Below, one piece after another: positions 15,853 through 17,452 of a DNA stretch of 41,104 nucleotides. The stretch's first letter is position 1, and every line of letters starts with the position of its first letter. Origin of the DNA: a virus. Taxonomy: Duplodnaviria; Heunggongvirae; Uroviricota; Caudoviricetes. The stretch is from the IMG/VR virus record IMGVR_UViG_2617270992_000014; one strand, written 5' to 3'. The position numbers were made by a program, and so were the translations under genes. Below the pieces are notes generated by a model that did no database searches, was not told the DNA's origin, and saw only the letters and a program-made list of their open reading frames with translations.

Positions 15853-15897
15853 TGCCTGAAAAACGGTACAAGGGCGTTAAACACGCTGGAGGATTAA

Positions 15898-16134
15898 ATG
15901 GAAGAAAAGCAGCCTTATATTTTCAATCCGGGTATGTCCATGACAGAACTGCAGACATGGCTGGAAAGGCAATCGATGGCAGTATCTTGTTTTAATAAAC
16001 TGGTTGAGGAAAAAGCCGCTATCGAGAAGCGGCTTGAGGAGATTAATCGATATCTTGATTTTTACGCATCGCGAATTTCTGAAGAAAAGTTGAGTTTTGT
16101 TCAGGAGCCCAGTCCTGATCTGACCAGTGAGTAG
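15898..16134 (+). CDS. Hypothetical coiled-coil-like small protein
   Basis: 78-aa ORF with GGAGGA 6 nt upstream of the ATG; 3' end overlaps a convergent minus-strand ORF. Confidence 0.4.
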   Translation: MEEKQPYIFNPGMSMTELQTWLERQSMAVSCFNKLVEEKAAIEKRLEEINRYLDFYASRISEEKLSFVQEPSPDLTSE

Positions 16135-16513
16135 TATCAGTATGTGTGACAGGCAAATTAAGCCCAGTAAGAAACTCGGCAGCTTCTTCGCACATATTAT
16201 CTGGCGTCAGGTACTCTGCAATAACAAAAAGACTGTCACGCAGGGAGAGTTTGCGAATATCTTCCAGCTTCCATTTTGTTATCCTGAAAATCATATGGTG
16301 TAGCGCCTTTCTGTTATCCAGGTGGTAGTGAAGGTGCGCATTTTTTCTTCGGTATTCTTCCAGTACGCATTCCAGCGTAAAAATCTGTCCGATTCGATAC
16401 CACGCTTCACGGTACTGCTGAATGGTCATGTCGAGTAAGACATGCTCTGGAATGTTATTGTTCTGGCATACCTTGAGCTTTATTGCTTGTAGTAAATTGG
16501 AGTAGTCACTCAT
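16043..16513 (-). CDS. Hypothetical protein encoded opposite to the late operon
   Basis: 156-aa ORF, AGAGG 5 nt upstream of the ATG on the minus strand; AT-rich; no recognisable domain. Confidence 0.5.
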   Translation of the reverse strand: MSDYSNLLQAIKLKVCQNNNIPEHVLLDMTIQQYREAWYRIGQIFTLECVLEEYRRKNAHLHYHLDNRKALHHMIFRITKWKLEDIRKLSLRDSLFVIAEYLTPDNMCEEAAEFLTGLNLPVTHTDTTHWSDQDWAPEQNSTFLQKFAMRKNQDID

Positions 16514-16628
16514 AAAAACCTCTGGCTTGATGTTGTTACTTTTGGCGAATTAACGATATCAAAAACGAAAAGTGTAGTTAATACAATGCAATACAATGGA
16601 AGCATGATTTACTTTGCGCTTTGACCCT

Positions 16629-16652
16629 GGGCTCGCTACGGCGGGCCTTTTT
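16629..16652 (+). terminator. Terminator-like hairpin inside the Q-to-lysis island
   Basis: GGCTCGC-TACG-GCGGGCC (7-bp stem with one G-U pair) followed by TTTTT. Confidence 0.4.
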
Positions 16653-16789
16653 CATATTCGCGCCACGCCCGGCGCACATCAAAAACCACAGAGCCTTTCA
16701 GGGGTGAGCTTACGGGATGGTCAGTGTGACTTTCTCTGTGGGCTGGTCACCTCCGGGCGCAGGCTCACCCACTAAAAGGAAAAGTCACG

Positions 16790-17215
16790 ATGTTTGGTAT
16801 TTTCAAAAAGAAAACCCGCAAGGCCATTACTGAAGTAAAGAAAATGGAGAACCGCGACGCAGTGGAGGCGACCGTCTGGGGTGCGTATTCCATCGCATTC
16901 GCCGACGGCACCTGTGATGCGAAAGAAATCGCGGTGCTGGAGAAAACCATTGCAGCACTTCCTGCTTTTGCGCCGTTCTCCGGTGAGATTGCACAAATGA
17001 GTGCAAATATCCGCGCCCGTTATGAAGCGTCGCCGCGCTCTGCCAATGCCGAAGCTCTTCGTCAGCTGGCTGATGTTGCCGGTACTGATGATGCAGTTAA
17101 TGTGCTGTGCCTGTGTCTGGATATCGCTGACCAGGATGGCATTGGTCCGGATGAAGAAGCACAGCTCAAGAAAATTGCTCAGGCGCTGCAGTTACCGCTG
17201 GAGCAGTACCTGTGA
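16790..17215 (+). CDS. TerB-like (tellurite-resistance TerB domain) protein
   Basis: 141-aa ORF; WGAYSIAFADGTCDAKEIAVLEKTIA and LCLCLDIADQDGIGPDEEAQLKKIAQALQLP follow the two-lobed TerB pattern as recalled from TerB sequences. Confidence 0.55.
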   Translation: MFGIFKKKTRKAITEVKKMENRDAVEATVWGAYSIAFADGTCDAKEIAVLEKTIAALPAFAPFSGEIAQMSANIRARYEASPRSANAEALRQLADVAGTDDAVNVLCLCLDIADQDGIGPDEEAQLKKIAQALQLPLEQYL

Positions 17216-17364
17216 AAAGTGCGCGCCTTGTGCTGGCTGTCATCCTGCTGTTTCTGGTAGTGGTGGTGGATTTCACCGGACGGCTGATGTCGGTGCTGGC
17301 AGATGGCGTGCTGGTGGCGATGGCGCTGGTCGTGCTCCGGCCTTTACTGCGTAAATCTGAATAA
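17212..17364 (+). CDS. Candidate 50-aa hydrophobic membrane peptide translationally coupled to the TerB-like gene
   Basis: Own translation from a GTG overlapping the TerB-like TGA: VKSARLVLAVILLFLVVVVDFTGRLMSVLADGVLVAMALVVLRPLLRKSE; below the ORF-track cut-off. Confidence 0.3.
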   Translation: MKSARLVLAVILLFLVVVVDFTGRLMSVLADGVLVAMALVVLRPLLRKSE

Positions 17365-17411
17365 CACCAAACAAAAGGCATCTGCGGGTGCCTTTGACGG
17401 GGTGTTTTTAC

Positions 17412-17437
17412 GGGCCGCTGGTGGCCCTTTTTTATTT
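17412..17437 (+). terminator. Intrinsic terminator immediately upstream of the lysis cassette
   Basis: GGGCC-GCTGGT-GGCCC hairpin followed by TTTTTTATTT; preceded by a second hairpin (AAGGCA...TGCCTT) at 17375-17394. Confidence 0.65.
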
Positions 17438-17452
17438 ACAGGAGAAAAAAGT

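Follow-up and report, generated by a model that had tools for sequence, protein, structure and literature searches.

Two apparently unrelated cassettes and a candidate family of structured leader RNAs between Q and the lysis genes of a phiP27-like prophage

The 1.6 kb that separate the antiterminator gene Q from the lysis genes in a lambdoid, phiP27-like enterobacterial prophage appear to consist of two unrelated cassettes, shuffled independently of each other and brought side by side by recombination. The prophage is a stretch of 41,104 nucleotides (nt), hereafter the window (IMG/VR record IMGVR_UViG_2617270992_000014), and it equals IMG/VR contig IMGVR_UViG_2617270973_000009. Cassette A (15853-16620) holds a small open reading frame (ORF), here called ORF78, and a convergent antisense gene of the ECs1072 family. 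Cassette B (16629-17440) is made up, in this order, of a terminator, a structured 5' leader, the gene tciA for a TerB-domain protein, the gene tciB for a small membrane peptide, and further terminators. Its leader is a candidate for a new family of cis-regulatory RNA that is absent from Rfam. An island at this place would as such be ordinary, since the gap between Q and the lysis genes is where lambdoid phages classically carry cargo, and the present genes fall into families already catalogued.

An initial annotation of the window had read the 1.6 kb as a single inserted island of four genes bracketed by two terminators. All four reading frames and both flanking terminators are present where it had placed them, and so is its convergent pair, 15898-16134 on the plus strand and 16043-16513 on the minus strand, which overlap by 92 nt. 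The unity of the island, however, was not borne out. A third terminator (16629-16648), which that annotation did not contain, as it did not contain the conserved leader (16655-16789) or a step in GC content, divides the stretch in two; the step lies at about 16600, from 41-45% (15700-16600) to 53-57% (16600-17500). Comparison with related prophages, proposed in the same annotation, revealed that the two cassettes have separate distributions. Of the 80 IMG/VR loci selected for a TciA at least 96% identical to that of the window, 79 have TciB adjacent to TciA, and the window alone carries the ORF78/ECs1072 pair beside tciA; in most related loci, holins that are 88-96% identical follow about 90 nt 3' of tciB. 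Viewed from the other side, a convergent, overlapping ORF78 homologue is present in 80 of 80 ECs1072-family loci, and the TerB pair in the window alone. The 5426 complete E. coli genomes give the same separation, with the DNA of cassette A (15853-16625) complete in only one of them, TUM1881, and the tciA leader found in 1222, at 2644 places. Moreover, arrays of tRNA genes occupy the position of cassette A in other E. coli prophages, and tRNAs together with stx2e occupy that of cassette B in phiP27, before the same holin, which supports the view of the stretch as accessory cargo at the known hot spot between Q and the lysis genes.

Central to cassette B is the leader of about 135 nt that precedes tciA. 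It is nearly identical among loci with unrelated upstream DNA, and even where identity between the TciA proteins falls to 42%, that between the leaders stays at 80-94%; insertions and deletions in it rule out a coding frame. The terminator directly 5' of it varies in stem sequence between loci, with compensating changes. The predicted fold comprises a hairpin (16660-16675), a pseudoknot in which CACAGAG (16687-16693) pairs with CUCUGUG (16734-16740), two helices (16701-16709 with 16762-16770 and 16714-16724 with 16743-16753), and a pairing of CCUUU (16694-16698) with the Shine-Dalgarno sequence AAAGG (16775-16779). The last of these appears both in the minimum free energy structure of the single sequence and in the RNAalifold consensus, and is kept in 32 of 32 aligned variants. 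Across these 32 variants, the blocks CACAGAR-CCUUUCAGG, UCUGUGGGC and CACUAAAAGG are near-invariant, and the helices between them vary and stay complementary.

Changes on both sides, that is compensatory ones, are seen at 19 of the 31 pairs of the leader. In the model-guided alignment (A5), which was fitted to the model and hence inflates pairing, 92.6% of the paired cells are complementary, against 35-50% with slid partners, and the covariation score reaches 0.346, compared with 0.119 or less, none of 500 shuffles attaining the score of 0.346; sequences from before genes other than tciA were not used in building the model. In a MAFFT alignment (A4), the helix arms ended up in different columns from variant to variant, and pair counts were therefore not taken from it. 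Further, the pseudoknot pairing is preserved through CACAGAA/UUCUGUG and CAAAGAA/CUCUUUG, and G.U pairs are limited to the sense strand, where the other strand would have A.C mismatches, which argues for an RNA rather than a joint at the level of DNA. Several loci (L009, L116 and L173) carry a run of 11-12 G in place of the 5' arm of a leader helix (GGGGUGAG, equivalent in position to window 16701-16706). The run, which would alter the helix, may have arisen through slipped-strand length variation or be a sequencing artefact.

Rfam 15 yielded no credible match over the leader core (about 16660-16790), where only chance microRNA matches were returned (13-15 bits, with cut-offs of 48.6 and 95), and nothing for two other leader variants. 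Known prophage small RNAs (sRNAs) were considered and set aside. STnc100, the best match nearby, at 16-20 bits against a cut-off of 47, matched 16561-16659 through the upstream terminator only, and isrK/isrJ stayed far below their gathering scores over the pR'-tR' leader (15777-15850); both matches were taken as similarity between terminators only. PasA/PasC have been reported near TerB genes (bioRxiv 10.64898/2026.05.13.724894), and the published probes for them have no counterpart in the window even with up to 3 mismatches allowed.

The leader is not confined to tciA. A covariance model built solely from tciA leaders found full-length matches of 36-70 bits before unrelated genes, the first of them the KilA-N gene sb54 of phage ST64B, and a pattern scan of IMG/VR added more than 120 further leader stretches. 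The genes behind these leaders encode KilA-N+P63C, Rha+ORF11CD3, P22 antirepressor-N, HNH and T5orf172 proteins, and some phages carry the leader twice, before tciA and again behind the lysis genes. With BLAST queries, tciA-type and ST64B-type leaders were each found in 15-23% of complete E. coli genomes, with up to 6-8 copies per genome; the ST64B type alone occurs in 808 of the 5426, with up to 8 copies, and the highest copy counts belong to O157:H7-type genomes of Shiga toxin-producing E. coli (STEC). The element is unannotated in RefSeq, and its conserved blocks were not found printed in the literature searched. A scan of species-representative genomes with a two-arm leader pattern returned 16 stretches, of which only 4 were genuine (in Pantoea septica, Citrobacter braakii, and metagenome-assembled genomes of a Pseudescherichia and of a member of the Proteobacteria), and so added little diversity. 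A regular-expression count of terminators before the leaders of other genes yielded too few cases to be of use. In the O157-type PPompW prophages (LC567818-LC567841), the first half of the leader (window 16630-16704) is followed by an insertion of ISEc20, an element of the IS110 family, so that the leader seems to be an insertion target or to be disrupted there. If the leader does control translation, it would constitute an overlooked general regulatory device of Shiga-toxin-type prophages.

Downstream of the leader, TciA scores 30.5 bits against Pfam TerB (PF05099; cut-off 24.4) in a single-sequence match that covers residues 11-57 only, and matches phrog_632 at E 1e-64. A profile of 8 TciA sequences (residues 15-135) extends the match to residues 21-144 of the solved TerB structure 2JXU (E 2.1e-7). 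The acidic motifs D39 G40 ... E46 and D116 G117 ... E122 are invariant across both TciA subfamilies and are thought to bind metal. The coupled membrane peptide of 50 residues noted in the initial annotation is confirmed as TciB (PF13064, DUF3927, E 1.4e-14; phrog_1470 'TciB-like'). It has two hydrophobic segments, and its GTG start codon overlaps the TGA stop of tciA (GTGA), an arrangement by which tciB is probably translationally coupled to tciA. The tci gene names derive from homology to the ter operon, and none of the ter partners TerC, TerD and TerZ lies beside tciA, whose neighbours are Q, the ECs1072 pair, TciB and the holins; the same partners are likewise absent in all related loci inspected, and no tciC-like third gene is present between tciB and the holin. 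Large phages of Erwinia, Pseudomonas, Salmonella and Vibrio carry TerB-like relatives, annotated there without a lysogeny context. In phage P1, whose TciA is 85% identical to that of the window, tciABC lies in the C1-repressed ban operon, and tciA, tciB and tciC were scored non-essential by CRISPR interference (PMC10695390). No functional study turned up in literature searches on DUF3927, on ECs1072 or on the conserved RNA blocks.

In cassette A, the antisense gene encodes a full-length member of NF033230, the "ECs1072 family phage-associated protein" (157 bits, cut-off 70; model positions 1-142 of 142). An exhaustive profile search for this family returned only 79 cluster representatives, nearly all of 145-155 amino acids and single-domain. 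The AlphaFold2 model of the protein is all-helical, with a predicted local distance difference test (pLDDT) value of 71.5; a Foldseek comparison with BFVD gave nothing below E = 2, a Pfam scan of all 15 ECs1072-family members no consistent domain, and a search of solved structures was uninformative with single sequences, TerB being found by the TciA profile alone. ORF78 encodes a small acidic helical protein that matches phrog_3501 (E 1.9e-20) and no Pfam or NCBIfam model. Homologues of ORF78 in Salmonella phage ST64B (Sb50, recorded with a wrong start) and Klebsiella phages share the motifs QQPYFFNPGM, EKAA.E.RL and LSF..PSP and begin directly after a hairpin equivalent to the one behind Q in the window. 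Across 80 loci, the two genes overlap at their 3' ends by 71-170 nt, and the pairing recurs in Escherichia, Salmonella ST64B, Klebsiella and Shimwellia together with differing Q and holin families. The block TTGATA-N3-TTrATTCGC upstream of the ECs1072 gene, a candidate promoter/operator, is conserved across 16 divergent upstream regions and also matches 231 E. coli genomes.

Several relatives of the antisense gene deserve mention beside this pair. The O157 Sakai gene at the ECs1072 position, now ECs_5703, has an NF033230 score of 105.7 bits and lies at a different site, antisense between a cII-like gene and the replication gene O. An unannotated plus-strand ORF (beginning MSNDKKLTLSVYENSPHIWRGGLSDVELAEWL) in the same Sakai prophage, Sp4 (L313 6155-6480), is convergent on ECs_5703 and shows a weak likeness to ORF78 (33% over 45 amino acids, E 0.018). 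In a Shimwellia blattae prophage (L435 2279-3447), a hicA-hicB pair stands directly upstream of the ECs1072-family gene and in the same orientation, all three being antisense to the lysis genes. Finally, O55:H7 DEC5A (L296 2842-3057) and 230 other E. coli genomes carry, just 5' of a lambda-type holin, a minus-strand gene of 71 amino acids that has the upstream/start block of the ECs1072 gene (window 16511-16568) and overlaps a convergent plus-strand gene; this gene is possibly a truncated or related form of antisense cargo.

From this anatomy, together with the family memberships, the distributions and the covariation of the RNA, we infer when the genes are expressed and what their products do. 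The reading that we somewhat favour takes the 1.6 kb as a cargo zone of the Q-dependent late transcript, in which cassette A combines a lysogen gene with a late partner, and cassette B is lytic and gated by its leader. Lying directly behind tR' as the first gene of the late transcript, ORF78 would be made only upon Q-enabled read-through, and the ECs1072 protein would be made in the lysogen from the antisense gene behind its own conserved upstream block. Late transcription of the prophage would shut off the ECs1072 gene by head-on transcription, and ORF78 might perhaps neutralise the protein. Such a layout is as would be expected of a prophage exclusion or regulatory function with built-in self-immunity, and ORF78/ECs1072 offers a defined two-gene unit that may bear on prophage exclusion or on late-gene control.

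A consensus scan found no sigma-70-like promoter on the plus strand in 16500-16800, and since cassette B has no recognisable promoter of its own, it would be transcribed by the terminator-resistant, Q-modified polymerase. The CCUUU/AAAGG pairing, the stacked pseudoknot and the two covarying helices suggest that translation is then gated after transcription. That tciAB are genes of the lytic cycle under Q is suggested by the lack of a promoter-like site, the leader that hides the ribosome-binding site, the C1-repressed ban operon of P1 and the relatives in large phages. TciA, as a soluble TerB-fold protein, and TciB, as a two-helix membrane hairpin, may act together at the inner membrane during lytic growth. 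With low confidence, we would see their likeliest role either in shielding the energised state of the membrane, and with it the timing of holin action, from depolarising insults, or in a block to superinfection. The routine label for phage TerB genes, "tellurite resistance morons", is at odds with the layout here, which points to expression in the lytic cycle.

Several observations weigh against this late-transcript reading. The scan covered the sigma-70 consensus only, so a weak promoter, or one for an alternative sigma factor, is possible inside the leader, and the block upstream of the ECs1072 gene itself falls below the threshold of that scan. That ORF78 and tciAB are expressed late only, and the ECs1072 gene in lysogeny, is likewise something we infer. 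In PHROGs, TciA and TciB both carry the category 'moron, auxiliary metabolic gene and host takeover'. Moreover, in TUM1881 (L001 3118-3351), the only other E. coli copy, ORF78 has a stop at codon 21 next to an intact ECs1072 gene, so that ORF78 is dispensable there. One could go further and hold that ORF78 is no gene at all and that its overlap with a functional ECs1072 gene is an accidental open frame on the opposite strand, a view to which the premature stop, the lack of an annotation for ORF78 by the PGAP pipeline in TUM1881 and the absence of a Pfam or NCBIfam model would lend themselves. However, its strong Shine-Dalgarno sequence and phrog_3501 match, its protein motifs kept at about 45% identity across three genera with most of each ORF outside the overlap, its homologue in every one of the 80 loci, and its independent recognition by gene callers in E. 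coli M056 and Shimwellia make this very improbable.

The initial annotation saw the whole stretch as laid out like a moron island, at a position where cargo is often related to lysogenic conversion or phage exclusion; on this view, spelled out further, the lysogen would express the genes and gain phage exclusion, colicin resistance or tellurite resistance. Terminators do flank and split the stretch, with 17374-17437 behind tciB and the hairpin at 15829-15852 beyond the 3' end of the ECs1072 gene, the PHROGs label on TciA and TciB says moron, and the same slot carries stx2e in phiP27. TerB, moreover, comes from the ter operon, which passages of two reports link to phage inhibition and to resistance against pore-forming colicins (PMC7371120, PMC9603915); this link to membrane protection, as it stands in those passages, is second-hand and drawn from phenotypes of the whole ter operon, not from TciAB. 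Expression by the lysogen would suit the antisense ECs1072 gene, which has an upstream block of its own, and the moron layout holds for this gene. It does not seem to hold for tciAB, which have no promoter-like site before them in the sigma-70 consensus scan, a ribosome-binding site sequestered by the leader, C1-controlled homologues in P1, relatives in large phages and no other ter gene adjacent. The annotation had further found none of the four proteins recognisable as a known system. The search of a defence catalogue that it called for bore this out in part, with 0 matches for the four proteins in PADLOC-DB 2.0 at E <= 1, which also speaks against the exclusion island; as two of the four belong to named families and all of them have catalogued relatives (the P1-like TciA, the DUF3927 peptide TciB, the ECs1072 family, and phrog_3501 for ORF78), "unrecognisable" was overstated. 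Taken together, a moron island that comprises the whole stretch is rather unlikely, and a moron or defence reading fits at most the antisense ECs1072 gene.

A different doubt concerns the leader, which could be a 'boundary sequence' acting at the level of DNA, a recombination joint for swaps of cargo whose apparent structure is incidental. It lies exactly at mosaic junctions, with upstream sequence unrelated between loci, precedes at least 6 unrelated gene families, has nearly invariant unpaired blocks, and is interrupted by ISEc20 in the PPompW prophages. Against this stand the points that helices wholly different in sequence between variants are yet complementary, with the compensatory changes described above, that the arms of the pseudoknot co-vary, that G.U pairs are confined to the sense strand, and that the last part of the element is always the Shine-Dalgarno sequence of the gene behind it; a mere joint is thus improbable. 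At the other extreme stands a bolder proposal, which we hold tentatively, as possible rather than probable. The leader would represent a new and widespread class of pseudoknotted phage riboregulators that conceal the ribosome-binding site and supply interchangeable cargo (TerB, KilA-N, Rha, antirepressor, HNH and T5orf172 genes) on both sides of the lysis cassette with a portable 5' end, gating translation by a phage or host signal, and ORF78/ECs1072 would in addition be a new exclusion module of convergent, overlapping genes with self-immunity.

Table 1. Features of the Q-to-lysis interval of the window, and further members of the leader family
Feature	Positions	Strand	Basis
Q antiterminator gene (upstream boundary)	15067-15762	+	Pfam PF06323, E 5.6e-89; phrog_304
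tR'-like intrinsic terminator, directly 3' of Q	15829-15852	+	stem 15829-15844, then TTTTTTT; -9.0 kcal/mol
ORF78	15898-16134	+	GGAGG Shine-Dalgarno 5 nt 5' of ATG; phrog_3501
ECs1072-family gene, 156 amino acids	16043-16513	-	NCBIfam NF033230; 3' end overlaps ORF78 by 92 nt
Conserved block upstream of the ECs1072 gene, candidate promoter/operator	16514-16568	-	TTGATA-N3-TTrATTCGC
Third intrinsic terminator, opening cassette B	16629-16653	+	8-bp stem 16629-16648 and T run; -15.4 kcal/mol
Structured 5' leader of tciA, about 135 nt, non-coding	16655-16789	+	conservation and covariation; covariance model match 16658-16801, 169 bits
tciA, TerB-domain protein, 141 amino acids	16790-17215	+	Pfam TerB; phrog_632
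tciB, two-helix membrane peptide (DUF3927), 50 amino acids	17212-17364	+	PF13064; phrog_1470
Tandem hairpins and terminator closing cassette B before the holin	17374-17437	+	17374-17395 (-13.4 kcal/mol); 17412-17427 and TTTTTT (-10.8 kcal/mol)
First holin of the phiP27-type lysis cassette (downstream boundary)	17453-17845	+	PF16931, E 1e-24
Leader family members	L092 1454-1596 (-); L010 3515-3655, 6124-6248; L097 2120-2259, 7091-7235; L335 600-748, 1967-2112		

The interval summarised in Table 1 is rich in terminator-like sites, of which 16 were counted in 14500-19000 against 4.9 +/- 2.2 in shuffles. The gap from tciB to the holin is only 88 nt long and is occupied by the two hairpins, and the PF16931 holin is followed by a second holin (PF05449) and an M15 endolysin. 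In TUM1881, two extra genes are found between tciB and the holin. The tciA-holin-endolysin block of PP818812.1, recorded as 'Actinobacillus phage vB_Apl-pPE4' (locus L005), has 91% DNA identity to the E. coli type, with TciA 100% identical, and the assignment of this record to the host Actinobacillus pleuropneumoniae looks doubtful. Elsewhere in the window, a full-length sok antitoxin RNA (12284-12459, plus strand; Rfam RF01794, 118.8 bits against a gathering score of 59) indicates that the early region holds a toxin-antitoxin locus of the hok/sok type.

It is instructive to set the two cassettes beside systems that are already known. Cassette B resembles the tci module of P1 in the close identity of TciA, in the DUF3927 peptide that comes next with overlapping stop and start codons, and in the tRNA genes that are neighbours in P1 and in many lambdoid copies. 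P1 differs in having a third gene, tciC (35 amino acids), and no structured leader, and in the place of its tci genes, which is the early, C1-controlled ban operon and not the interval between Q and a holin. With TerB of the terZABCDE operon (2JXU), TciA shares the domain at nearly full length and both acidic D-G...E motifs. Unlike that TerB, it is phage-borne, stands alone with a small membrane peptide and no TerC, TerD or TerZ nearby, and would be part of a lytic transcript. In its position, the stretch is like other lambdoid cargo between Q and the lysis genes, such as stx, tRNA arrays and the nanS-p esterase: phiP27 has its tRNAs and stx2e directly before the same holin pair, and in O157 and O55 prophages tciA-tciB is followed by an esterase gene. 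Transcription of stx depends on Q read-through of terminators. Compared with stx and the esterase, the cargo of the window has no known toxin or metabolic role, and one of its genes is antisense.

For cassette A, the closest parallels are sieB-esc of P22 and lambda and BstA-aba of BTP1, in each of which a prophage exclusion gene goes with a linked or overlapping element supplied only by the lytic programme of the resident phage. ORF78/ECs1072 would likewise pair a prophage gene with an overlapping element supplied late; it has no relation to these systems in sequence or fold, and its partner is a separate, convergent protein gene. The leader, in turn, recalls the preQ1-II and SAM-II riboswitches and the operator of T4 gene 32, which are pseudoknot leaders that sequester the ribosome-binding site. 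Common to them and to the tciA leader are a Shine-Dalgarno sequence paired within a compact pseudoknotted fold, here a predicted one, invariant unpaired blocks and covarying helices. The leader family differs from the riboswitches in that it has no Rfam match and that the genes behind it are unrelated phage regulators and nucleases and not members of one pathway, so that a metabolite ligand is not obvious. Overall, the cassettes themselves are already catalogued, and what the analysis adds is the conserved convergent pair of ORF78 and the ECs1072-family gene and, above all, the structured leader, as yet uncurated in RNA-family databases.

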